60,525 bases of DNA. Origin: an uncultured Gammaproteobacteria bacterium (GTDB lineage Bacteria; Patescibacteriota; Microgenomatia; UBA10105; UBA927). Made by a program: the position numbers and the translations under genes. Every line of letters begins with the position of its first letter. Within the stretch, counting starts at the first letter, position 1. The notes beneath the pieces were generated by a model, which saw only the letters and a list, made by a program, of their open reading frames with translations, made no database searches and had not been told where the DNA came from. Shown one piece after another: positions 20,287 through 60,525 of the stretch. Location: positions 38,211-98,735 of the forward strand of contig CAYGFH010000005.1 in assembly GCA_964349125.1 (NCBI GenBank), read 5' to 3'.

Positions 20287-20466
20287 TAGGTGAAAGGGTC
20301 ATATGAAATGGATTGTCTGCACGATTGCAGCAAAAGTTTCATAGTTTTTTTCAGCTATTTTTTTGGGGAATCCGACGTTTGTCAGATTACGCTCAAGTTC
20401 ACCTTCTCCGGCGCAAAACCAAGAATTATCATCTTGGCTGAAGGATGCAAGACCGGAGAAGGGAGG

Positions 20467-20539
20467 CGGGGATGGCAGGACTCGAACCTACAACCGCTGC
20501 ATTTAAAGTGCAGTATTCTGCCAATTGAACTACATCCCC
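20467..20539 (-). tRNA. tRNA with anticodon UUA (ochre-suppressor type), Trp-like body, no encoded CCA
   Basis: GGGGATG TA GTTC AATTGGCA GAAT A CTGCA CT-TTA-AA TGCAG CGGTT GTAGG TTCGAGT CCTGC CATCCCC G; all four stems pair. Confidence 0.9.
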
Positions 20540-22964: not shown

Positions 22965-23849
22965 TTAGTGAAACATCTCCATGATAATCCGTCCGCTTTC
23001 CCAGAAGCCGTACAAAGCCAGTAGAATAAAGGCAATCGTACCCGCAAACGAAATGTATTCATTTTTCACTGCCTGTATTGTCTTGGCGGGGGAAATAAAC
23101 AGTGCAATATTCAGAATCGTATGGGCGGATATGACGCCGATGGCAAATCCGTAGACGTTAATGACACTAAAAAGTGGCACATATCCGGCAAAATCATCCA
23201 AGCCCAGTATAAAAGGAACAGATGCGGAAAATACAAGCAATTGTTTCCAAGATAATTTACTCTGACCTTTTAACTTTTCTCCAAGATTCGGCATGATGCG
23301 GGATAACACGGGGTCTGTGAGCTTGTTTATACCGCCTAAGAATCCTGAAAGGGCCTGAAATATAGCGTTTTTGACCCCATGACCCGCTTTCCAGGTTTCA
23401 AAGTGCTCCAGTGAGCCATGCGCCAGTTCAAACAATACCAGAGCCGCAAGCGCGACCATGAGAGCGAGCAGGATGTGCACATCTTTGAACAATACCCAGA
23501 GACCGATAATGGCAATCGTTCCCAGGGCGTTGCCTGCCGCCGTGCCGATCTCTATGGCCACTCTATTTTTCCATCCGGTGTTTGTGGTCATGAGCCTACC
23601 CATGAAAATAGCGAAATCGATGGATGTCTTGAGATAGATGGTTATACCGATTGCCACATCCACCCAGTGAATATTCATGTCTATAACTTCTCTGACGGGA
23701 AACAGATTAAAAAATAAGAGAGCACTATGAAGAGTGAAAATGAGCACCAGAAGAACCACGACTGTAAGGCAGAGGGGGACGAGCTGACGCAATAATCTGG
23801 AATCCTCTACGGTTTTGACAAATACATTCATTGTCACAGTATACCTCAA
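22965..23849 (-). CDS. CadD-like (LysE superfamily) membrane transporter
   Basis: TSIDFAIF and LGLDDFAGYVPLF resemble the two CadD repeats; multiple TM helices. Confidence 0.65.
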   Translation of the reverse strand: MRYTVTMNVFVKTVEDSRLLRQLVPLCLTVVVLLVLIFTLHSALLFFNLFPVREVIDMNIHWVDVAIGITIYLKTSIDFAIFMGRLMTTNTGWKNRVAIEIGTAAGNALGTIAIIGLWVLFKDVHILLALMVALAALVLFELAHGSLEHFETWKAGHGVKNAIFQALSGFLGGINKLTDPVLSRIMPNLGEKLKGQSKLSWKQLLVFSASVPFILGLDDFAGYVPLFSVINVYGFAIGVISAHTILNIALFISPAKTIQAVKNEYISFAGTIAFILLALYGFWESGRIIMEMFH

Positions 23850-23905
23850 TCAGCCCAATCATACCGCTGAATTTATATGTTGTAAAGATATATACAACAC
23901 ACCTA

Positions 23906-23933
23906 TTGACATTTCATATGTTTGGAGTATGAT
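23906..23933 (+). promoter_or_regulatory. sigma70-type promoter of the attenuated right operon
   Basis: TTGACA-N16-TATGAT. Confidence 0.7.
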
Positions 23934-23967
23934 GTCCTATAAAACGCCAAAGCTTTGGCAAAATACC

Positions 23968-24021
23968 ATGAAATCATTCGCCGTAACAAAATTTATTATT
24001 ACAGACCTTCATTTTGAGTAG
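23968..24021 (+). CDS. Putative attenuator leader peptide MKSFAVTKFIITDLHFE*
   Basis: TAG overlaps the antiterminator strand 24020..24032; N-terminus resembles the 18885..18953 leader. Confidence 0.6.
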   Translation: MKSFAVTKFIITDLHFE

Positions 24022-24057
24022 GTTTGTGTTTGCGTATGTAATGAGTTACTCAAACAC

Positions 24058-24084
24058 AAACCTCCAGCAAATGGAGGTTTTTTT
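24058..24084 (+). terminator. Intrinsic terminator (attenuator C:D hairpin)
   Basis: AAACCTCCA-GCAAA-TGGAGGTTT followed by TTTT, 25 nt before the first operon gene. Confidence 0.85.
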
Positions 24085-24109
24085 GTGGAAGCAAAAGAAA
24101 TGAATATCT

Positions 24110-24706
24110 ATGAATAAAGAGATACCGGAACGTTCATTTATGATCACTGGCGTGCCTTCTGTAGGGAAGACGGAGCTCTCGCGTGAACTGTATAAACTGC
24201 AAGACTTTATACCACATCCGCCATATACAACTCGCCCACTCAGAGTAAATGAGTGTTCCTCAGATATGCGTAGCATCACAGAAGAAGAATTTCTGAATTT
24301 ATATGCACTTCGTCGTCTCATAGAGGGTGAACTTAATATTCCATACGAACGAACGGGATATTTGGGAAAACGATATGGTTCGCCTGTTGACTGGATGGTT
24401 GTGGAAACGCATATGCATGCAGCAATAGGATTTGTATCGTTTAGTACGTTAATTGCGTCCGTCGTCAAGCGCTCTGTTGGGGAAAACGTTGCATGGATTC
24501 ATCTTACTGCAAATGAACAGGTGCGTCGGATCAGGCTTGCTGAACGAAAAATTCCGGAAGAGGAAATAACCCGCAGATTAGCAAATACAGATGGAGATAG
24601 TCATGCATATTTTGATGCAGCTGATCTTGTTGTAGATACCTCATCTATTTCATTAACTGATGAAGCGTCGATGGTTCTCTCGTATATCAATCGTGCTTCC
24701 ATTTAA
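24110..24706 (+). CDS. Guanylate-kinase-like P-loop kinase
   Basis: TGVPSVGKT P-loop, YTTRPLRVNE and YGSP motifs. Confidence 0.85.
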   Translation: MNKEIPERSFMITGVPSVGKTELSRELYKLQDFIPHPPYTTRPLRVNECSSDMRSITEEEFLNLYALRRLIEGELNIPYERTGYLGKRYGSPVDWMVVETHMHAAIGFVSFSTLIASVVKRSVGENVAWIHLTANEQVRRIRLAERKIPEEEITRRLANTDGDSHAYFDAADLVVDTSSISLTDEASMVLSYINRASI

Positions 24707-24717
24707 CACACATATCT

Positions 24718-27700
24718 ATGCCTGAACTTCCCATGAGCCATTTTAAAATTCCTATTGATCATCAGCAAAATAATGCTGATATGACACAGCGGACTCTCTT
24801 ACAAGGGGAGTCGTTAACCATGGACGTATCAGACGCTGAACAGTTTTCATTACCGGCATATATGAGTGCACTTGAACACCATGTGTTGCATAACAGATCC
24901 CGTATTAAAGAAACATGGATGGATATGCCTGTATGGGGTGACGGAATCAGTTTGCGGCATTTTAGCGAGCCTCAGGCTGTTTTTCACCCTCTTTCAGGGG
25001 GAATTCTTATACCAAAGAATGGACTGAGTGATCAGTTGCACTCATTTTATGCAGTACCTCGACATGGAGTAGTATTGGGCAATCATATAGATAACAGGGC
25101 TGCCGCATATTTTGCCCCCGTAGATCCTGCCATGTCGACCCGTGATAGGCTCAGCGCTATACAACAAAATATCAACGATACTCTGTCTGTTTTATCTACA
25201 GTAGATTTTACCGAACAATCAGATGCTGATTTTTTAGGCACTCTGGGCTTGTTAGATACCATAAAAACGAGCTATCTATCTTTGTACCATACTCTTACGT
25301 ACTCCGAACGCACAGATACTCAATTTCATGACGATGAGTATGCCACAGTCAAACAATCTCTGCTTGGTAGGGCATTTGATGCTGTCCAAACGTATTATTT
25401 ATACATGCTTGGGCACACTCAACGTGCTTTGCATATTTCGGCAAAACTGCCAAACATGCAGCGTGTATTGGCACGTGATATTGAATATATGAAGCAACGT
25501 AATCTTCCGCGGGAGCATTTCCGGTTACCAGAGTTGGATCATCCGTTAAGCATTGCTGGAAATGTCATCTTGAATATTGCTACATACCCTTCGATAGATA
25601 CGATAATCGGTTTACCTTCTGGGGGAACTGAATTGGCCTTTGCTCATCAAATAGGGTACGAATTGATACATGGTAGGATGCCGGATATTATCTTGGTTCC
25701 GTTGTCTACACATTCTGGCTTGCCAAATACCGACGAAAAACGCGACATTCAGATCGTTAAACAATGTCTGGACTCCTATCACAACGCTATAGATGGGAAA
25801 TCTATACTCGTGACCGAAGATAATGCTAATTCCGGAGAAACAGCCTCAATTATACAGTCTCAGCTTTTGTCTGCCGGTGCAAAAGAAGCACATGTAACTA
25901 TAGCAGCGTTAGATACTATTCGCACCGCAATAAAACAAACAAAATGGCCTGCGGATCGTCGGCCTCGTATTGTTCCCGGTATGTCACTTGTTCAAAACGC
26001 CGTTACAATAGCGCCAATTATAAAACGCACGTTCAATGACGTATCAGATGATCGTCAGATTGTGAAATTACTGCGTCTCAGACGTATTCGAGATGCATAT
26101 AGAGCACATCTGCCGAACAATGAACCACTTCCGGATGTACAGCCGGGTATTTCCACAGCATTGAACGTGAAAATATGTGGTATTCATAACGCGGTTGATT
26201 TACGCAATGCCGTTAGTGCCGGTGCTCGGATGGTAGGAATTCATTTGACGTATGACAACCCACGCGGATACGAGTCAAAAGTAGGCTCATTTGCTCATCC
26301 TATGGCTGAAATAGGACTTACTATGGCGCGTGGATTCCACCCACAGAAATCGCTACCGTTACCATGGGCGGAATATGGGTCTCTGAAGCACATGATGGCG
26401 GATGCCACTGATATTCAAGTGCCGCTTACATTCGTCCTTCTTATGCGTCCAAAATCCGTACATGACGTATTGGCCATGGTAGAAACGGCAGTTCCAAAAG
26501 GATTTACCCATCAGATCGATCTTCAGATACAGCGGTCATATGATCAAGACTTTTTGAAGGAACTGAGAGAAACGCTCAACGCTCATGGGTATACGAATAT
26601 CCGAATAATTCAGACATTCGGTGCGAATCAAGAACATATAGAATCACTTCTGCAACGTGCGAACGCGGATGATCATATTGATTTTATATTATTGGATTCA
26701 GACCTCAAGGGTGGGACTGGCATACAAACCAGCTCAACCCTTCTAGTCAACTTGGCGGAGCAAATACAAAAACCATGGTATCTGTCCGGTGGTCTGCGTG
26801 CAGAAAATATAAAAAATACGCTCACGTCGCTGAGAGGCACAAATCTGTTTGGTGTGGATGTAGAATCATCGGTGGAACTGGAGAGACCGATTTCTACAAC
26901 AGTAGGGGCAACGCACGCGTTCGCGCGTGTGAGAAAAGATATCGAAAAAATGAACACATTTATGTATCAGGTACAGCAAGCTGAACTGCAAACATTTTTT
27001 GAGACCCGCTATATGGATTTGGATGTACGCCAAACAGAATTCTATGCTGTACTCAAGAATGGATGGAAATCTGCATATGAGGAATGTGGATACTATAATC
27101 TTGATGCAATTGCTCGTGCAGTATATGCGGAAGCGACATCACGTGGTATTGTCGGTAGCATTAACGAAGAAGATTTTGTAGCAGTATTTAAAGAAGGTGC
27201 CATAGCGTATCCATTCGTGCCGGATCAATATATTCAGGACAATTGGCCGGCAAATAACGTACAAGATTTTCTCAATATCATACGAACGCAGGTATCTGCA
27301 ACAGCGGGATCTGTAGGAGTGTTAACATCAGGTGACTCTGAGTTGTTCGATAGCGGCAGCTACCAAGGTAGCCCAGAACAGGTATATAGATTCCGATTAT
27401 CAGGGTTACAACGGCTAATGAATGACCTATATGGACCTGAAGGATATACGTTTATAGCGCACCCATTTAAGGTACAAGAATTTGAATCCCACATACTCGA
27501 GAAGGCCAAGTCATCTTCCTCTCTAGTTATATGTATTGATGATAGGGTAGAGAATCTTCAAAAAACCAGGCACTTATGTGAACGTGAAGGGGTACGGTTT
27601 GTTGGAATCAATATATCTTCAGAGAGTAATGATGCTGATTTTATACAATGTGCCGATCTGGCATCTGCGGCAGAAGTTATAACCCAACTGCCCACAGATG

Positions 27701-27819
27701 CACCGCATATGTATGTGTTGGATATGGATGACGTACTTCTGAAGGAACAATTTAGAAAAGATCATCAGGCCAAAAATATATACCTTAATCTGGTAAAACA
27801 TACCTGTATACACATATGA
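24718..27819 (+). CDS. Multidomain fusion: unknown N-terminus, type I phosphoribosyltransferase, TrpF/PRAI-like TIM barrel, HAD-like domain
   Basis: SILVTEDNANSGET (PRPP loop); VKICGI, FILLDS, GGTG, LSGGL, GVDVESSVE and KDIEK (TrpF); MDLD, LTSG, HPFK and IDDRVENL (HAD). Confidence 0.85.
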   Translation: MPELPMSHFKIPIDHQQNNADMTQRTLLQGESLTMDVSDAEQFSLPAYMSALEHHVLHNRSRIKETWMDMPVWGDGISLRHFSEPQAVFHPLSGGILIPKNGLSDQLHSFYAVPRHGVVLGNHIDNRAAAYFAPVDPAMSTRDRLSAIQQNINDTLSVLSTVDFTEQSDADFLGTLGLLDTIKTSYLSLYHTLTYSERTDTQFHDDEYATVKQSLLGRAFDAVQTYYLYMLGHTQRALHISAKLPNMQRVLARDIEYMKQRNLPREHFRLPELDHPLSIAGNVILNIATYPSIDTIIGLPSGGTELAFAHQIGYELIHGRMPDIILVPLSTHSGLPNTDEKRDIQIVKQCLDSYHNAIDGKSILVTEDNANSGETASIIQSQLLSAGAKEAHVTIAALDTIRTAIKQTKWPADRRPRIVPGMSLVQNAVTIAPIIKRTFNDVSDDRQIVKLLRLRRIRDAYRAHLPNNEPLPDVQPGISTALNVKICGIHNAVDLRNAVSAGARMVGIHLTYDNPRGYESKVGSFAHPMAEIGLTMARGFHPQKSLPLPWAEYGSLKHMMADATDIQVPLTFVLLMRPKSVHDVLAMVETAVPKGFTHQIDLQIQRSYDQDFLKELRETLNAHGYTNIRIIQTFGANQEHIESLLQRANADDHIDFILLDSDLKGGTGIQTSSTLLVNLAEQIQKPWYLSGGLRAENIKNTLTSLRGTNLFGVDVESSVELERPISTTVGATHAFARVRKDIEKMNTFMYQVQQAELQTFFETRYMDLDVRQTEFYAVLKNGWKSAYEECGYYNLDAIARAVYAEATSRGIVGSINEEDFVAVFKEGAIAYPFVPDQYIQDNWPANNVQDFLNIIRTQVSATAGSVGVLTSGDSELFDSGSYQGSPEQVYRFRLSGLQRLMNDLYGPEGYTFIAHPFKVQEFESHILEKAKSSSSLVICIDDRVENLQKTRHLCEREGVRFVGINISSESNDADFIQCADLASAAEVITQLPTDAPHMYVLDMDDVLLKEQFRKDHQAKNIYLNLVKHTCIHI

Positions 27820-28847
27820 AAGAAACAGGAAATATAGGCTCAGTATTTGCAGCAAAACACATACCGTTGTCCCTAAAAGAAAGCGGTGTACAGATTAGAT
27901 ATGCAGAAACAGTACAGGGATTAGCAGAGCAGAGTGTCCCTCTTGATGCGCTCCTTGAAACAGCCCAGCAAACGGTAACCGAACAAACACAGCAAATAGT
28001 AAACCCCGGAAGCGTTATTGTATATCCGGGGAGGCATCCGGAATCTAAACATCCTATGGATGTTCTGTTGGCTAAAGGTATTGCATTGTATCGTATGGAA
28101 ACCAGCCCATGGAATGACGCTGTTGTCCAGTTCGCGCTTCAGACAGAACAGGCGTTGTGCGGCAACCTACCAATACACAAGGATACATTGTTTTCAGATA
28201 TGTTAGGTACCATAAAACAATCGGAGGTTGAATCTGGCGCCGTTGGCATCATAGGAGCAGGAGATATTGGTTCAGGGATAGCGCAGGCGATGTGTGAGAG
28301 TGGTAGGCATGTGTTGTACGTTTCAAGATCTGTACGGCCTCAATTGGATGCGTTTGGTGCACGCAGAGTGGGGTTGAAAGAAGCATTCTCAACTGCGCAA
28401 AGTTTGTTTATTACATTGCCGTACTCGTTAGACACTAAAAACATGATACATGGTAGTCTCATTTCTCAAATGCGTCCGAATGCCCGTTTGATTTCTGTAT
28501 CCGCAGCTGGTGTTATAGACGAAAACGCCCTTGTTTCATCTCTATGCAATGGAAACACTATCTCTGTAGCGTTGGACGTATATAACGGAGATATATCAGG
28601 TTCTGTGCTACATCCGGGCAATTCTCCAGGACTTACGTCTGTATATAAGCAAGGGAGGATACTTGTGACACCGCATATTGCGTACAAAACCGGAGAGTCT
28701 ACGAAAGTACTACTTCATACGATGGCACAGCCTATTTTGAATATGCTATACGGATATGGACTAGAGGAAACAGTGATCGTACCTACACCAGCTGAGCTTC
28801 AAACGCATTATTTAAAACCATCTTATACTATCAAACGGACAGTATAA
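27816..28847 (+). CDS. D-isomer-specific 2-hydroxyacid dehydrogenase family protein
   Basis: IIGAGDIG, ALDVY and LVTPHIAY motifs; overlaps the upstream stop (ATGA). Confidence 0.85.
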   Translation: MKETGNIGSVFAAKHIPLSLKESGVQIRYAETVQGLAEQSVPLDALLETAQQTVTEQTQQIVNPGSVIVYPGRHPESKHPMDVLLAKGIALYRMETSPWNDAVVQFALQTEQALCGNLPIHKDTLFSDMLGTIKQSEVESGAVGIIGAGDIGSGIAQAMCESGRHVLYVSRSVRPQLDAFGARRVGLKEAFSTAQSLFITLPYSLDTKNMIHGSLISQMRPNARLISVSAAGVIDENALVSSLCNGNTISVALDVYNGDISGSVLHPGNSPGLTSVYKQGRILVTPHIAYKTGESTKVLLHTMAQPILNMLYGYGLEETVIVPTPAELQTHYLKPSYTIKRTV

Positions 28848-28920
28848 GCGTGTATATATGCGCTTTCCAACCTAACTGTTGTTATAGGGCTATAACCTAT
28901 AGTATAATGGCGCTACCTTT

Positions 28921-29475
28921 ATGAACATTTTTGAGAAAAATGATCGTTTTCGTGGAGATCCGTATGGCTGGCTCCCCCGTGGAGAAAATGCCGGTGTTTC
29001 GTTCGTCAAAATGAAACCTTTATCGGTTGATGATATAAAACGATTTACTTCACAATTATTTTTTGTAGAGGCAGATCCTGGTGATGGTGTTTTTATACCC
29101 AATGGAAGTGTTGGCGTGACGCGAGATTTTGGCCCGTGCTCGGCAGCCATATTAACCGGTATCAATGATTACTCTTGGTTAGGACATTTAAAACCGGGAA
29201 CAGGTATTCCACCCGAACATGTACAGCAAATTAGACGCGATATAAATGCAGGTTCTCAATTGAATATTGCTCTTGTCGGCGGGTGTGAATTTAACAGAAC
29301 CGGTATGGGATCATATCGACAAAGTCAGATTGTCACAATACAAAAGCAGTTTGCAGATTCCGGTTTATCTGTTGCTATTCAAGCGTATTGGAATCCTGTT
29401 GCGGACTCCTGGATGTTTGCTGCTGTCCATGCTAACTTTGGCCACGCCACAGCCACCGTAGCTTACGAATTATAG
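28921..29475 (+). CDS. CheD/CNF1/YfiH-like Cys-His hydrolase (putative deamidase)
   Basis: TRDFGPCSAAIL...WLGHL spacing resembles CheD TxGLGSCV...GxxH. Confidence 0.55.
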   Translation: MNIFEKNDRFRGDPYGWLPRGENAGVSFVKMKPLSVDDIKRFTSQLFFVEADPGDGVFIPNGSVGVTRDFGPCSAAILTGINDYSWLGHLKPGTGIPPEHVQQIRRDINAGSQLNIALVGGCEFNRTGMGSYRQSQIVTIQKQFADSGLSVAIQAYWNPVADSWMFAAVHANFGHATATVAYEL

Positions 29476-29774
29476 TCATCAAATTCAATTATCCTCACGG
29501 AAAAATATATTGTTTAAAAATATACAACAAAAACTTCATTTTATTGACATTATAGGATATAATATGGGTACCTGCGTGGAAACAGGTATGTATGTTGCCA
29601 CACCGACCCACACATGCGTGGAATCGGGGGGCGACTACGAGCTCTTTAACATGGGATAAGGGTGTGTATATCTCCTTTTTTGCTTCATTTTTTGCCCGGA
29701 AACATGGTCACAGTCGTCCTGCGGCCGTATCTACGGGCAAAAAATTCAAAATCAGAAAGATTGGAGATAGCGAA

Positions 29775-30638
29775 ATGAATAAAAAATATGGTAGGTTAGT
29801 TTTGCTGCTTGTTGCAGCAATCGTATTGTCGGCTTGTGGCGGCGTCAGTGGCCCCAAATTGACCATTACGACTGTGGTTGTCGCGCAAGTTGGAGATGTC
29901 GAATTCGAGTTGACGACGTTAGGTTCGGAAGCGATTTCCGTTTCGAAGGTTGAAAACGAAGACACCGGTGCCTCCAGTTGGAATGCTGACCTGGCGAAGC
30001 TTGCTAAGGCTCGTTCAGACGCTGAAACTGAGGTCGCTGCTATGAACGGGCGGTATGATGCAATCAACGGCATCAGCCACCCCAAAATTGTGTTGGAATC
30101 GTCTGAACTTGACGAGCTCATTGCGGCGAAAGGCGTCATAAAGAAAGGGAAGTACGAAGGTAGTGAGATCACGATAGTCTATCGTGTAGAGGGCGGCGAT
30201 GATCTCAAATTCAATAGCCTGGTAGGTGATAGAATCAGCTTCACAATCAACATTGCTGACGGCGGGCTTGTAGGAGATTTCTCTCAACCGACAGCCAGCT
30301 TCGTATCTTTCCTGCAAGGAGATAGGCTACCTGAGGCGAAAATTCGCGTAGACATGCGGTCCGATTTCTATGATCCAAGCCTTCGTGTAATCGAGTCTGG
30401 ACATCTGGGAACTCTTACCGTTCTCAACACAAATAATGGTCCTGTGTGCGATATCGCCAATGCTTTATTGAGCTTCATCTCAGCACAAAATGGTGGAAAC
30501 ATTGTCAAGAGGGTTTGGACAAATGGACCTTCCATGACCATCTCATTATGGGAGGATCGCAATCCACCCACACCCACCCCGTATCCCTCCTCAACGCCTT
30601 ATTCGCCGGCTACGCCCGTACCGACGATAATGCCGTAG
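29775..30638 (+). CDS. Putative lipoprotein with Pro/Thr-rich C-terminal tail
   Basis: MNKKYGRLVLLLVAAIVLSA|CGG signal peptide with lipobox; GGAGA upstream. Confidence 0.8.
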   Translation: MNKKYGRLVLLLVAAIVLSACGGVSGPKLTITTVVVAQVGDVEFELTTLGSEAISVSKVENEDTGASSWNADLAKLAKARSDAETEVAAMNGRYDAINGISHPKIVLESSELDELIAAKGVIKKGKYEGSEITIVYRVEGGDDLKFNSLVGDRISFTINIADGGLVGDFSQPTASFVSFLQGDRLPEAKIRVDMRSDFYDPSLRVIESGHLGTLTVLNTNNGPVCDIANALLSFISAQNGGNIVKRVWTNGPSMTISLWEDRNPPTPTPYPSSTPYSPATPVPTIMP

Positions 30639-30653
30639 AGGCTTCCACGCAGA

Positions 30654-30720
30654 TCCTTAACCGGGTCGCCAATGTTTTTTTTGTAATTTATTGGCGCCCG
30701 GTTAGGATTTGTTTTTTTCA
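30654..30720 (+). terminator. Long-stem terminator-like hairpin
   Basis: atcct-taaccggg...gccaat / attggcg-cccggttaggat followed by a U-rich tract. Confidence 0.65.
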
Positions 30721-30896
30721 ACGAAAACTCCCTAAGCGAATATACCCAGTTACTAATTAATTACCTTGTAATCTAGTTTGCTATCATGTCCCGCATGGGG
30801 ATAAAAATACCGTTACATAGTAGCAAAAATTTACCCCGTAACACAGTAAGCAAGCTGATGAGCAATATATTGCTACAATGAAGAATCAGGGAGATG

Positions 30897-31550
30897 CTAG
30901 ATAATAATTTTCAGTGATCTGAGGATCGGTATGATTACCTCGAGTGGCAATCCGATCACGTTAGTGTAACTTCCGTCCACTTTCGTCACCAAATCCCATG
31001 GCGCTTCATTGAGCGCATATCCACCCGCAAACCGGGTGAAATCAAATCGTCCGATGTAACTTTCCACCTCAGGACCTGTCATTTTTCTGAATGTTACTTT
31101 TGTGACAACGGTCTTTTCCCACGTTTTCTTTGCTTTGCCTTCCTGAACGAGTGTGACATGTACTGCTGTGACAAATTCATGAGTTTTTCCCATCAGGGCG
31201 CTCAACATTTGTTTTGTGTCTTCACGGTCCGCAGATTTTCCAAACACCTTGGCTCCGAGCACTGCCATAGAATCAGCGGCAATAATCAGGGATTCGCGTT
31301 CCTCAGGAATGCTGTATACACGGGGGTGTTGCAATACTTCCGCAGCCTTTGCTGCCGCTCTCTTTTTGATTGTCAGTTCCGGTTTTTTGTCTACAATTGC
31401 GTCTTCATCCACACGTGCTACGACCACACGGAAACGGACGCCGAGTTTTTCGAGGATCATTTTTCGTCCGACTGATTGTGATGCGAGGATCACATCTGGT
31501 TTTGGCGGTTCTTCTGGTGGGGCATTTTTGGAAGCGAAAGATAATTTCAT
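30897..31550 (-). CDS. maf: Maf family nucleotide pyrophosphatase
   Basis: ILASQSVGRK, IIAADS and AGGYA motifs plus GSYTNVIGLP. Confidence 0.93.
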   Translation of the reverse strand: MKLSFASKNAPPEEPPKPDVILASQSVGRKMILEKLGVRFRVVVARVDEDAIVDKKPELTIKKRAAAKAAEVLQHPRVYSIPEERESLIIAADSMAVLGAKVFGKSADREDTKQMLSALMGKTHEFVTAVHVTLVQEGKAKKTWEKTVVTKVTFRKMTGPEVESYIGRFDFTRFAGGYALNEAPWDLVTKVDGSYTNVIGLPLEVIIPILRSLKIII

Positions 31551-31671
31551 ATGATCGTATTTTAGCAGATTGTGATGGAATTTACTAGATAAATCATTTT
31601 TGTGCTCCCCAAGTGGAATCATCCCGCTTTGCGGGATTTCGCTCCAATATATCGGAGCTCAAAACGACGTG

Positions 31672-57326: not shown

Positions 57327-60300
57327 ATGAACCGAATAACGCATATGATGATTCGACTTGGCATGATGCCTGTGTTCGTGCTGCTATTACTCATTATCGT
57401 GGGGAGTATTGTTCACACGATTTGGGGTGGGGCATTTCAGGCTATATCACGTACAAAATCATCTTTGACATCTAAGAATCATCCCTCAAATACCTATGAA
57501 GTAACCACTGTCGACAAAACAACTCTTGAGAAAAGTTCGTTTTCCGGACCGTTTATCGTATCAATTCTCAGAAAAGATGGATCTTTTTCCTATGCTGTTG
57601 TCCTGTCTGCAGATTTAATTGGAGATGCATTCCTCGGAGATATCACGGTTCAATTCCCCAACGGAGACATGGGTGAGGTGACCGAGAGTAGTGGAAATGT
57701 CGAGCTATTTCTCACGAAAAAAGGTAACCGTGAGTCTGTTACTATAGTAGATCGGTTACTATCCGGAATTGTATTGCCTGATGATTCGATATTGCCGGTA
57801 AAGTTTAAAGATGCAACAATTCGTGATGGTAGGCTCGTTGGAAATTTTCAGTTATATGCGTTCGCAGATAAAAAGAAAGTAATCGGGAATTTCTCTTCAC
57901 GGGGCGATCTGTTGAGTCTACAAGTTACACCCAGCCTCGCAACGCTTGATTCAACATCTTTATTAGTTACCCGTGAGTTATTAAAGCTGATTTATGCCCG
58001 TTCAAGCGAATCAGAGCAAAACGTATTGGGTATTACTTCGGAAAATGCCACTGTAATCGGATCGGATTCGACACAAATTAGCATAGGATCTATTTCGTCG
58101 TCAATTGTGGCGCGTAGGGATGATGAAGAAGGTACCGTACGACTTTTTCAGCAGGCGCTTCCGGGTATTTCACAATCCGTAGCAATAGAGAGCTTAACAC
58201 CCGGACTTGAAGTCATTCAAAACAACGGAGTTACACAAATCCGTATCACAGCTCTTGATGCAATAACCGTAGCGGGTGGAATAGGCGCGACAGGTGCTTC
58301 CGGTATTGCCGGAGCAACCGGAGAGCGAGGGCCGGCCGGAGAGGATGGAGCAGATGGTTCTGGTTCAGGAGGAAGTTCGAGTGGCACAACAGGTGTATCC
58401 GGTCCGACAGGGGAAACTGGCGCAACAGGAGTAGCTGGCGCATCAGGTCCAACTGGTGCAAGCGGAATTCAGGGAGCTACAGGTATGACTGGTTCGACGG
58501 GAATTCAGGGAACATCCGGTCCAACCGGTGGCACAGGCACAAATGGTCCGACGGGCGCTACGGGTGCAACAGGTCTGGCTGGTATTGCGGGAGCGACTGG
58601 CGCTTCAGGAATCACCGGTCCATCTGGCTCAACTGGTGCGCAAGGTGCTACAGGAGTGTCAGGCGCAACGGGGGCTTCCGGATCGATCGGTATAACGGGA
58701 CCGACAGGATCCACGGGGACAACTGGCATCACAGGTGTATCAGGTGCCACCGGATCGACAGGTGAAATTGGCAGTTCGGGGCCAACAGGCGCTACAGGAA
58801 GCACGGGTACAAATGGTGTTCAAGGCCCGACGGGAAGTACAGGATCAACGGGTGTTGAGGGGCCTACCGGATCGTCCGGCAGTACCGGAGTCTTGGGTCC
58901 TACCGGAGCGACGGGGGGCACCGGTATTGCAGGTGGCGGTGGGTATGGCCCGACGGGATCAACAGGCGCAACAGGAACTCAAGGTACTGCAGGGGCAACA
59001 GGATCAACGGGAGATGTGGGCCCGACAGGAAGCTCAGGAGCCACAGGGTCAACCGGTATACAGGGCCCGACAGGGATGACGGGAACAACGGGAATAAATG
59101 GTCCGACGGGTGCAACGGGTGGCACAGGTGTCGCCGGTGGTGGCGGTATGGGTCCGACGGGCAGTACTGGTGCATCTGGACAGGGTGGTGTGACAGGATC
59201 GACAGGAGTTATCGGAGAGACAGGGCCGACAGGATCGACCGGATCAAGTGGTGTTGCAGGTCCGACAGGGAGCACAGGATCTACCGGTTTGGCGGGTACA
59301 AGTGGTCCGACAGGCAGTACTGGTGCATCGGGACTGGGTGGCGTGACGGGAGCGACGGGAGTTATAGGAGAGACAGGGCCTACAGGATCGACCGGATCAA
59401 GCGGTGTTGCCGGGCCAACAGGAAGTACGGGATCTACAGGTTTGGCTGGTACAAGTGGTCCGACGGGTGCCACAGGGTCAACCGGTACTGTCGGCGCATC
59501 AGGGCCGACGGGAGCAACAGGTGCAACCGGCGGGATAGGAGAAACAGGCCCGACAGGCAGTACGGGCGCAACAGGAAGTATCGGGGCATCGGGTCCGACC
59601 GGTACGACGGGGACCACCGGAGCAAACGGCCCGACGGGAGCAACGGGAGGCACGGGAATAGCAGGTGGCGGCGGATACGGTCCGACAGGCGCAACGGGAG
59701 GTACAGGTACAGAAGGTGTACAAGGCGTCACGGGAGCTACCGGCTCAACAGGGTCCGTAGGTTCCAACGGTCCGACCGGAGATACAGGATCAACCGGTAC
59801 TCAGGGTCCGACCGGTACCACGGGGACCACAGGGACAAACGGCCCGACGGGAGCAACGGGTGGTACAGGAATAGCAGGCGGCGGAGGAATGGGGCCCACA
59901 GGGTCTACAGGCACGACAGGAGTCGCAGGTCCTACAGGATCCACGGGAGCAACAGGTATTGATGGATCCTCAGGTCCGACGGGATCATCAGGAGCTACTG
60001 GTGGTACTGGGGCAGTCGGTATAAGTGGTCCGACAGGAAATACAGGCGCAACGGGTACAAATGGTGTTCAGGGACCGACCGGTGCAACCGGTCCGACAGG
60101 TCAGACTAACGGTCCTACAGGCTCAACAGGAGGCACCGGGTCGGCAGGAGAAACGGGACCGACTGGAGCCACGGGTGGAACGGGTGCAATTGGAACCACG
60201 GGTCCAACTGGCGCTACAGGAGCTTCAGGTGTAATTGGACAGACAGGGCCTACAGGTGCCTCCGGAGCGACAGGATCAGTCGGAGTAACAGGTCCAACGG

Positions 60301-60525
60301 GAGCAACGGGTGGTACAGGCTCAGTAGGAATCACGGGTCCATCGGGAGCAACAGGCTCCTCTGGGGCTATTGGACAGACAGGGCCTACGGGTGCCTCTGG
60401 AGCTACAGGATCAGTTGGGTTGACAGGTCCGACAGGAGCAACAGGCTCCACGGGTTCAATAGGAATTACCGGTCCAACGGGAGCAACGGGTGGTACAGGC
60501 TCAGTAGGAATCACGGGTCCATCGG
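57327..60525 (+). CDS. Giant collagen-like (G-X-T) surface protein, 3'-truncated by the window end (>1066 aa)
   Basis: Manually translated open frame from ATG 57327 (signal/[16 protein letters not shown]) into G-X-T/S triplets from ~58284 to the window end; absent from the ORF track because no stop is present. Confidence 0.92.

Follow-up and report, generated by a model that had tools for sequence, protein, structure and literature searches.

At positions 24110-28847 of the plus strand, the 60,525-nucleotide stretch of contig CAYGFH010000005.1 (assembly GCA_964349125.1, from an uncultured bacterium) analysed here carries a compact three-gene cassette. It encodes a guanylate-kinase-like kinase, a fusion protein of 1033 residues in which a type I phosphoribosyltransferase (PRTase) is joined to a TrpF-like barrel and to a further C-terminal domain, and a dehydrogenase of the 2-hydroxyacid dehydrogenase (2-HADH) family. 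The whole stretch is referred to as the window below. We propose, with a probability of about 45%, that this cassette is a small-molecule pathway that starts from phosphoribosyl pyrophosphate (PRPP) and follows the general scheme set out below; the chemical steps, their order, the amine and the product are what we infer from the enzymes.

An earlier reading of the same DNA, made from the letters alone (the sequence-only reading), had placed four genes in this region. An open reading frame (ORF) check of the window returned the four plus-strand ORFs at 24110-29475 with the same coordinates: the kinase (24110-24706, 198 aa), the fusion protein (24718-27819, 1033 aa), the dehydrogenase (27816-28847, 343 aa) and a fourth frame, ORF4 (28921-29475, 184 aa). 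The tight coupling described in that reading is indeed present, with a gap of 11 bp between the kinase and fusion genes (24707-24717) and a stop codon of the fusion gene that overlaps the start codon of the dehydrogenase gene in the sequence ATGA. The same four genes, with the start of the 1033-aa protein called, are found in a second, near-identical assembly from another sample (L031), and therefore the operon is not an assembly artefact.

Domain architecture of the fusion protein

When 1.84 billion representative proteins were searched exhaustively with HMMER, 227 relatives of the fusion protein came up, and a word-based homologue search with alignment added just two proteins. A few of these relatives are full-length, with about 1040 aa (P0003, P0005, P0008), and P0011 and P0013, of about 1210 aa, have a guanylate-kinase domain appended at the C-terminus. 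Several of about 740 aa are without the last domain, one of 603 aa consists of the last two domains alone, and most, of about 450 aa, match only residues ~60-460. This range of lengths indicates a modular protein, in which an N-terminal domain (N-domain) with the PRTase, the TrpF-like barrel and the C-terminal domain are the units. Stand-alone members of the first unit are fused to HAD or NADAR domains in some relatives, and in one locus (L009) a stand-alone PRTase module lies beside a TCAD9/APH-like kinase and a PglZ-like protein. The only name that a homologue has in a public source, 'phosphoribosylanthranilate isomerase/hypoxanthine phosphoribosyltransferase', was assigned automatically.

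Residues 1-285 (24718-25572, +) form a family-specific, mostly helical N-domain, of which the sequence-only reading made no mention. It places about 250 conserved residues ahead of the PRTase, for which the predicted local distance difference test (pLDDT) scores of the AlphaFold2 model are mostly 80-92; residues 1-23 are disordered in the model. Positions G94, R127, E197, Y208, Y227 and G232 are conserved across 36 relatives (alignment A1), and no match to the N-domain was found in Pfam or the PDB.

The next domain, residues 286-470 (25573-26127, +), is a type I PRTase, as its loops, family profile and fold matches all indicate. Its pyrophosphate (PPi) loop reads PSGGTE and its PRPP loop ILVTEDNANSGET; in alignment A1 the two loops are conserved as PSGGTE and VLVxDDNSNTGxT, and residues S301-G302-G303-T304-E305, D368, N369 and G373 are invariant in six homologues. 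The PRTase family profile matches the purine PRTase 1vdm in the PDB at 1.1e-8, and HGPRT, PurF and PyrR as well. The Pfam cut-off for Pribosyltran (PF00156) is passed by 24 of the 36 relatives, and the PRTase model matches phage PRTases in BFVD (TMt 0.55, probability 1.0).

Residues 478-745 (26149-26952, +) constitute a (beta/alpha)8 barrel similar to TrpF, i.e. phosphoribosylanthranilate isomerase (PRAI), with Cys487 and Asp660 as catalytic residues. The PRAI family (PF00697, cut-off 22.7 bits) matches residues 626-720 with 43.7 bits in the whole protein and 48.2 bits in the isolated domain. In an alignment with TrpF of T. maritima, C487 corresponds to Cys7 (NVKICGI versus RVKICGI) and D660 to Asp126 (ILLDS versus ILLDT). 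The sequence-only reading was to be given up if the catalytic Cys and Asp were lost; both are retained, and they are invariant, together with the phosphate-binding SGG and ESS motifs, in six homologues with 24-45% identity. The AlphaFold model of the full fusion protein has a mean pLDDT of 81.5, with values of about 80-95 in the barrel region, and Foldseek with this full-length model gave TrpC-TrpF (7ety) as the top match at 8.2e-8, followed by RPE, HisA and PriA. The best score against the NCBIfam TrpF equivalog is 52.8 bits, which misses the cut-off of 215. The barrel is thus a TrpF-like isomerase and not a TrpF orthologue. Together with the PRPP and PPi loops and the PRTase profile, the PRAI match bears out the earlier description of a type I PRTase (not of the TrpD type) fused to a TrpF-like domain and a further C-terminal domain. 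Tryptophan biosynthesis was rejected as the function, since no indole-glycerol-phosphate synthase (IGPS/TrpC) was found in the genome, which is 97.7% complete, and the fusion protein contains its only PRAI domain. No other trp genes had been noted nearby in the sequence-only reading, and the genome as a whole has no trp pathway.

The C-terminal domain, residues 746-1033 (26953-27816, +), comprises a six-helix bundle and a Rossmann-like sheet, and its motifs make it a candidate permuted HAD phosphatase. The four HAD-type motifs are present and conserved, albeit not in the canonical order I-II-III-IV: they occur as II-III-IV-I, with Thr870, Lys918, Asp941-Asp942 and then, at the end, Asp1002-x-Asp1004. 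This is the order that a circular permutation with the helical bundle as C1 cap would give, and it had escaped the sequence-only reading, in which the domain was simply called HAD-like. In 14 homologues of the domain the motif sequences are IWTxGD (Thr870), AHPxK (Lys918), IDD (Asp941/942) and DMDDVLLHE (Asp1002, Asp1004); K918 and D1004 are invariant among them, T870 and D1002 are conserved in at least 90%, and the acidic pair of motif IV in at least 70%. In the six full-length homologues D1002, D1004, T870, K918 and D942 are all invariant. Family matches are marginal: Pfam DUF2608, which we take to be a member of the HAD clan, is matched weakly in the whole protein and barely over its cut-off by the isolated domain (24.3 versus 22.6 bits), and there is a weak two-piece alignment to drimenol synthase, a HAD-type terpene synthase. 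The earlier label has weak support from these matches.

Partner genes and recurrence of the cassette

The first gene encodes a guanylate-kinase-like P-loop kinase. The protein matches Pfam AAA_18 (32 bits) and PHROG 1815, guanylate kinase (6.4e-11), and it escaped whole-genome scans with TIGR03263 and PF00625. The guanylate kinase (GMK) motifs GVPSVGKT, YTTRPLR, E72 and Y89-G-S are conserved over six linked kinases; the P-loop, TTR, Glu72 and Tyr89 are common to the window kinase and the linked kinases of loci L001, L030, L005, L007 and L008. Enzymes with the guanylate kinase fold convert a phosphomonoester to a diphosphate. A PhnN-type, PRPP-forming kinase was considered and rejected, because the match has an E-value of 0.019 and the genome has a normal PRPP synthetase.

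The dehydrogenase scores 96.1 bits against PF02826 (2-Hacid_dh_C, cut-off 25.1), and its best relatives in the PDB are phosphoglycerate dehydrogenase and D-lactate dehydrogenase at 1e-13, in line with the sequence-only reading. It reaches none of the NCBIfam equivalog cut-offs. The catalytic His (TPHIAYK) and its acidic partner (NGD/EGD) are retained. In the D-2-hydroxyacid dehydrogenase family the Arg of the VaRGG motif binds the substrate carboxylate, and this residue is lost in all three orthologues, which have VSAAG (window), VSGGG (L001) and VSAGG (L004) instead. As the carboxylate-binding Arg is lost, the enzyme is probably a ketoreductase for a non-acid substrate, a neutral ketone being likelier than a 2-oxo acid. 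The GxGxxG motif is followed by YVSRS, and from what is known of the family the Ser-Arg-Ser after the second strand suggests use of NADPH.

The neighbourhood evidence consists of eight independent loci rather than a statistical survey. The closest version, L001, has a fusion protein 44% identical to that of the window, the same order of kinase, fusion and dehydrogenase, and the same ATGA-type overlap; identities over the cassette are 44-57%. In L004 the fusion gene is followed by a dehydrogenase gene (40% identical) and a 208-aa gene. The fusion is split in L030, into genes for a 407-aa protein (N-domain and PRTase) and a 603-aa protein (TrpF-like and C-terminal domains), followed by the dehydrogenase and a 199-aa gene; the kinase gene is nearby on the other strand, and a family 2 glycosyltransferase (GT2) gene is also in the locus. 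More distant versions, with fusions of 24-30% identity, are found in L005/L006, L007, L008 and L029, where Ham1-like, GT2, short-chain dehydrogenase/reductase (SDR) and guanylate-kinase genes follow. In L005-L008 and L029 an SDR replaces the 2-HADH, while the GMK-like kinase is always present, being fused into the same polypeptide in L007 and L029; L007 and L008 have an AAA_33 kinase gene in addition. A gene similar to nucleoside deoxyribosyltransferase (NDT) lies upstream in some loci of this group. L005 also has adenylate kinase (ADK), an ADK-GTP cyclohydrolase II fusion, CYTH and nucleoside diphosphate kinase (NDK). L029 is situated inside a glycan locus with NeuB, three family 1 glycosyltransferases (GT1) and two GT2, and L008 has UDP-glucose dehydrogenase, GT2 and GT1. 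The triad of fusion protein, GMK-like kinase and NAD(P) reductase thus persists even between very distant versions, and its occurrence in fused and split forms is classical evidence for functional linkage. Co-occurrence elsewhere, on which the sequence-only reading had made its proposal depend, is borne out in L001, L004, L030, L005-L008 and L029.

The genes of about 200 aa that follow the dehydrogenase gene in L004 (12162-12788) and L030 (10799-11398) are 28% identical to each other (1e-23). Their motifs ILIATxNxDKF, ExGS and VGxDDG align with those of Ham1/ITPase proteins in the larger clusters. The relation to Ham1-like proteins is not significant by hhalign (E 0.26), no match was found in the PDB, and the gene is missing from the window.

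Proposed pathway and rival explanations

We propose that the PRTase uses PRPP to place 5-phosphoribose on a nitrogen with a remaining hydrogen; this nitrogen could be that of an exocyclic or aryl amine, of ammonia, or of an amine from a ring-opened purine or pyrimidine. PRPP is available, as a PRPP synthetase (Prs) is encoded in the genome, and the N-domain would probably serve as a substrate hood for the PRTase. In the TrpF-like barrel, Cys487 as base and Asp660 as acid would then bring about an Amadori rearrangement to a 1-amino-1-deoxy-ribulose-5-phosphate adduct. To our knowledge, the Amadori rearrangement of an N-(5-phosphoribosyl)amine is the only chemistry of TrpF/HisA-type barrels with this catalytic pair, and the PRTase that precedes the barrel in the same chain is the evident supplier of its substrate. 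The new C2 ketone would be reduced by the dehydrogenase to an N-(1-deoxypentit-1-yl), i.e. ribityl-type, amine 5-phosphate; a reductase without its carboxylate anchor, made from a gene in translational coupling with that of the fusion protein, is the obvious consumer of the ketone. If the C-terminal domain is a permuted HAD phosphatase, it would remove the 5-phosphate. The kinase would act on a nucleotide-like phosphomonoester and either prepare the acceptor or turn an intermediate or the product into a diphosphate. Phosphoribosylation, Amadori rearrangement, redox and dephosphorylation had been suggested in the sequence-only reading, and this remains the best reading, with the Arg-less dehydrogenase as an extra argument; dephosphorylation by a HAD phosphatase is a possible step within it. 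The biological role is most likely the synthesis of a specialised metabolite or a cell-surface precursor.

Several observations weigh against this scheme. The window's own PRTase copy reaches 14.2 bits against PF00156, below the cut-off of 26.3, and the kinase 20.3 bits against TIGR03263, below the cut-off of 160.45. The PRAI match covers model positions 91-177 of 193, that is the C-terminal half, about 60 residues are inserted in the barrel, and the AlphaFold2 models were built on six sequences only. Foldseek, which depends on sequence order, found no HAD protein with the C-terminal model (pLDDT 85; best E-value 4e-3), and when the C-terminal sequences were re-permuted, NIF was matched at 0.003 in two of 12, DUF2608 barely, and nothing in the PDB. 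A kinase and a phosphatase within one pathway are not self-explanatory. No characterised member was found in the fusion family, which numbers about 230 representative sequences, and nothing identifies the substrate amine. Finally, the Ham1, CYTH, NDK, GT2 and GT1 neighbours of the distant relatives point to nucleotide triphosphates or glycans, and not to a simple ribityl-amine.

The sequence-only reading would have yielded to a characterised pathway of the same architecture; no such pathway, and no description of the architecture, was found in the literature searches. Two PRTase-to-Amadori routes are known, TrpD/TrpF and HisG/HisA, and among characterised systems their logic comes nearest. As in TrpD plus TrpF, an amine would be N-phosphoribosylated with PRPP and rearranged in a (beta/alpha)8 barrel, which is homologous and keeps the Cys/Asp pair. 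The differences are a type I PRTase with a private N-domain in place of the TrpD fold, the fusion of the two activities, the barrel insertion, the kinase and reductase partners, the lack of TrpC in the genome and the low equivalog score. The histidine route (HisG-HisE/I-HisA-HisB), together with its coformycin/pentostatin branch, likewise brings together a PRTase and an Amadori barrel, along with an NTP pyrophosphatase, a HAD phosphatase and either a dehydrogenase or an SDR. Analogues of all these activities occur in the distant relatives of the cassette, and HisA and PriA are strong fold matches; the cassette itself, however, consists of kinase, fusion and reductase only, and has no HisG-type PRTase, cyclohydrolase or glutamine amidotransferase. 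In riboflavin synthesis an N-ribosylamine 5'-phosphate is reduced to a ribitylamine by the RibD reductase and then dephosphorylated by a HAD enzyme. The net chemistry is the same as proposed here, and the relative L005 includes a GTP cyclohydrolase II domain, but the enzymes are unrelated (a TrpF-like isomerase with 2-HADH or SDR versus RibD), and the likeness comes from pathway knowledge and not from homology.

The first and last steps of the proposed scheme have parallels in three PRTase and HAD pairs. AzaD and AzaG of azacitidine synthesis perform a PRPP-dependent transfer, after which a HAD enzyme takes off the 5-phosphate (PMC13749301), gPRT-PRP ribofuranosyl transferases combine PRPP-dependent transfer with 5-phosphate removal (PMC11127046), and a Ter-linked PRTase/HAD module is predicted to make a nucleoside-like metabolite (PMC7824862). 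In these pairs, which are sometimes one fused protein, there is no TrpF-like isomerase in between and no N-domain, whereas the HAD-like motifs of the window protein are permuted and a candidate only; no sequence membership of the window proteins in these three families was found. The enzyme families of the cassette are thus all known, and what is new is their combination, the N-domain, the Arg-less reductase and the permuted HAD-like domain. A bolder version of our proposal, which we put forward tentatively and with more doubt than belief, is that of a third PRTase-to-Amadori pathway: a single polypeptide would channel PRPP and an amine into a nucleoside-like metabolite or a new ribulosyl- or ribityl-amine, the first circularly permuted HAD phosphatase would be part of the pathway, and widely differing bacteria, small-genome relatives of this organism among them, would share it through the spread of a mobile cassette.

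The main rival, which keeps the same core and would explain the neighbours of the distant relatives, is a nucleotide pathway resembling histidine or coformycin synthesis. The PRTase would act on a ring nitrogen of a purine nucleotide that is kept as a di- or triphosphate by the GMK-like and other kinases, and removal of pyrophosphate, ring opening, rearrangement in a HisA-like barrel, reduction and dephosphorylation would give a modified nucleoside, e.g. an antimetabolite. Coformycin synthesis is such a branch of the histidine pathway and ends with reduction by an SDR and dephosphorylation. The Ham1-like NTP pyrophosphatase, the ADK-GTP cyclohydrolase II fusion, CYTH, NDK, AAA_33 and NDT-like genes would all fit, as do the GMP-binding Glu and Tyr motifs kept in the kinase and the presence of HisA and PriA among the best fold matches of the barrel; azacitidine biosynthesis is a case in which a nucleoside is formed by a PRTase and a HAD enzyme (PMC13749301). 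We nevertheless regard this explanation as unlikely for the window, where the cassette lacks both a cyclohydrolase and a pyrophosphatase. The gene of L004 and L030 that may be Ham1-like, itself a weak assignment, is absent here, and the fusion proteins of the larger clusters, at 24-30% identity, may have another substrate. The glycan genes around some relatives (NeuB, three GT1 and two GT2 in L029; UDP-glucose dehydrogenase, GT2 and GT1 in L008; GT2 in L030) would suit a cell-surface glycan precursor of the PRPP-dependent pentofuranose type, for which a sugar, amino-sugar or lipid acceptor would receive the phosphoribose, which would then undergo HAD-like dephosphorylation and redox at C2. Two characterised routes combine a PRPP transferase with dephosphorylation, gPRT-PRP and DPPRS/phosphatase/DprE1-E2, one of them with C2 epimerisation (PMC11127046). 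Amadori rearrangement is not open to an O-glycoside, but the two catalytic residues of TrpF are invariant here; in addition, the transferase is a soluble type I PRTase, neither gPRT nor of the UbiA type, and the cassettes of the window, L001 and L004 contain no glycosyltransferase, which makes this origin quite improbable.

The location of the cassette as a strain-specific insert in a hypervariable hotspot (see below) recalls conflict systems, and an anti-phage role with a nucleotide-derived signal or toxin, as predicted for Ter PRTase and HAD modules, would agree with the nucleoside-like signal expected of such enzymes (PMC7824862). Stand-alone members with N-domain and PRTase occur near TCAD9/APH-type kinases and a PglZ-like protein (L009), or fused to NADAR or HAD. 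No gene had a match in PADLOC beyond chance level (PADLOC-DB against the cassette proteins, E-values of at least 0.019), so that a known defence system was rejected and the defence molecule offered as one possible product in the sequence-only reading finds no direct backing. A sensor, effector, nuclease or toxin gene is also missing from the cassette, the island that occupies the hotspot in another species looks biosynthetic and not defensive, and Pfam PRTase_2 is matched by three of the 36 relatives, weakly; we give a conflict role little credence. Housekeeping salvage, in which the kinase would be the GMP kinase of the cell and the fusion protein a salvage PRTase with degenerate extra domains, would account for the retained GMK motifs and for the canonical guanylate kinase that was not found in the genome. 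It is very improbable, as canonical Gmk is absent from all 13 sampled genomes of the family, of which the 12 others also lack the cassette, so that no lineage-specific gap is filled; moreover, the TrpF and C-terminal motifs are invariant at 24-45% identity, which is not degeneration, and the two other species of the genus do without the operon.

Genomic setting and significance

The cassette is probably a horizontally acquired accessory operon, and it sits in a variable hotspot as a strain-specific insert, a feature absent from the sequence-only reading. The insert measures about 7 kb (23850-30896) and lies between a membrane-protein gene (22965-23849, -) and maf (30897-31622, -); it contains the cassette, ORF4 and a 348-aa lipoprotein-like gene. 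The two other species of the genus keep both flanking genes without the operon: one (G020) has a single 233-aa ORF between them, and the other (G021) a different 15-kb island at the same site (L021, G021:C14:5500-20700). The fusion protein was not found in 86 other genomes of the order, and a contig scan with the fusion protein gave nothing; the PRTase module is present in five of 401 sampled genomes of the phylum. The host genome measures 1.6 Mb, and those of its relatives about 1 Mb. A canonical guanylate kinase (PF00625/TIGR03263) was found neither in the host nor in 12 other sampled genomes of the family, while one was detected in three of the six genomes from the sister family. The cassette leaves this absence in the family unexplained.

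The G021 island has a content of its own. It encodes three proteins related to aminoacyl-tRNA synthetases (aaRS), namely a truncated class II aaRS-like protein, a GluRS-like protein and an AlaRS-like-methyltransferase fusion, together with three further methyltransferases, an S66 (MccF-like) LD-carboxypeptidase, an amidohydrolase and a GT2-nucleotidyltransferase fusion. By its content it resembles a gene cluster for the biosynthesis of, or self-immunity to, an aminoacyl-type compound.

ORF4 is an orphan in the same insert, outside the conserved cassette. No match was found in Pfam (E up to 0.1), NCBIfam, PADLOC or PHROG, nor in the PDB at E up to 10, and among 5.8 billion proteins only its copy in L031, at 99% identity, is related to it. 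Neither the 86 genomes of the order nor any of the homologous loci have it, and it is unrelated to the gene that follows the dehydrogenase gene in L004 and L030. Its interpretation as a CheD-like hydrolase, or as a member of the pathway, was rejected on these grounds, contrary to the sequence-only reading. The TATAAT at 28903-28908, which was taken there as a possible promoter of its own for this last gene, does exist within a promoter-like TTGTTA-18-TATAAT (28879-28908) ahead of ORF4, but such sites are no commoner than expected, with 22 in the region versus 21.0 in shuffled sequence. The 348-aa gene (29592-30638, +) encodes a lipoprotein-type signal, LLLVAAIVLSACGG, and a Pro/Thr/Ser-rich C-terminus, and has no family match.

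Upstream of the operon, the best promoter-like sequence of the region, TTGACA-16-TATGAT at 23906-23933 (+), has 11 of 12 consensus matches; it is identified by consensus only. It is followed by a leader (23968-24087, +) consisting of a 17-codon mini-ORF, MKSFAVTKFIITDLHFE (23968-24021), a long hairpin, and a terminator-like stem with U-run (24058-24087) directly before the kinase start. The fold of the leader RNA has a z-score of -4.2. A known riboswitch or conserved leader was rejected, since Rfam gave sub-threshold matches only (Phe_leader at 25 bits versus a 55-bit cut-off) and comparison with the upstream regions of L001, L004 and L030 revealed no conservation. Because no plus-strand gene ends at the terminator-like stem, the leader may be a local attenuator, as a candidate from its sequence features.

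Elsewhere in the window, a tRNA with anticodon UUA (20465-20539, -; anticodon loop CTTTAAA; Rfam tRNA, 70.9 bits) is encoded beside tRNA-Val(CAC), and could act as a UAA suppressor. Stop codons of 41 long ORFs in the window are TAA (22), TAG (13) or TGA (6); TAA is thus the commonest stop, and the codon is therefore not reassigned despite this tRNA. A PRTase-like frame in another part of the genome (G000:C1:654660-654815) contains two in-frame TAA codons. The segment 58001-60000 has a G+C content of 0.595, versus about 0.44 elsewhere, with strong GC and AT skew, and lies within a long ORF (57327-60524, +) that is open at the window end.

For an organism with a small genome (1.6 Mb), no tryptophan pathway and no canonical guanylate kinase, an acquired 5-kb operon for ribose chemistry is probably ecologically important, with a surface structure, an antimetabolite or a signal as possible purposes. 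The HAD fold may be naturally circularly permuted in the C-terminal domain, and the Arg-less 2-HADH subfamily may represent a new ketoreductase specificity. If a third PRTase-to-Amadori route were true, it would mean a new class of metabolites and a new enzyme family, in the form of a single fused enzyme with conserved partners, and with its three genes the system is small enough to be directly testable by heterologous expression.

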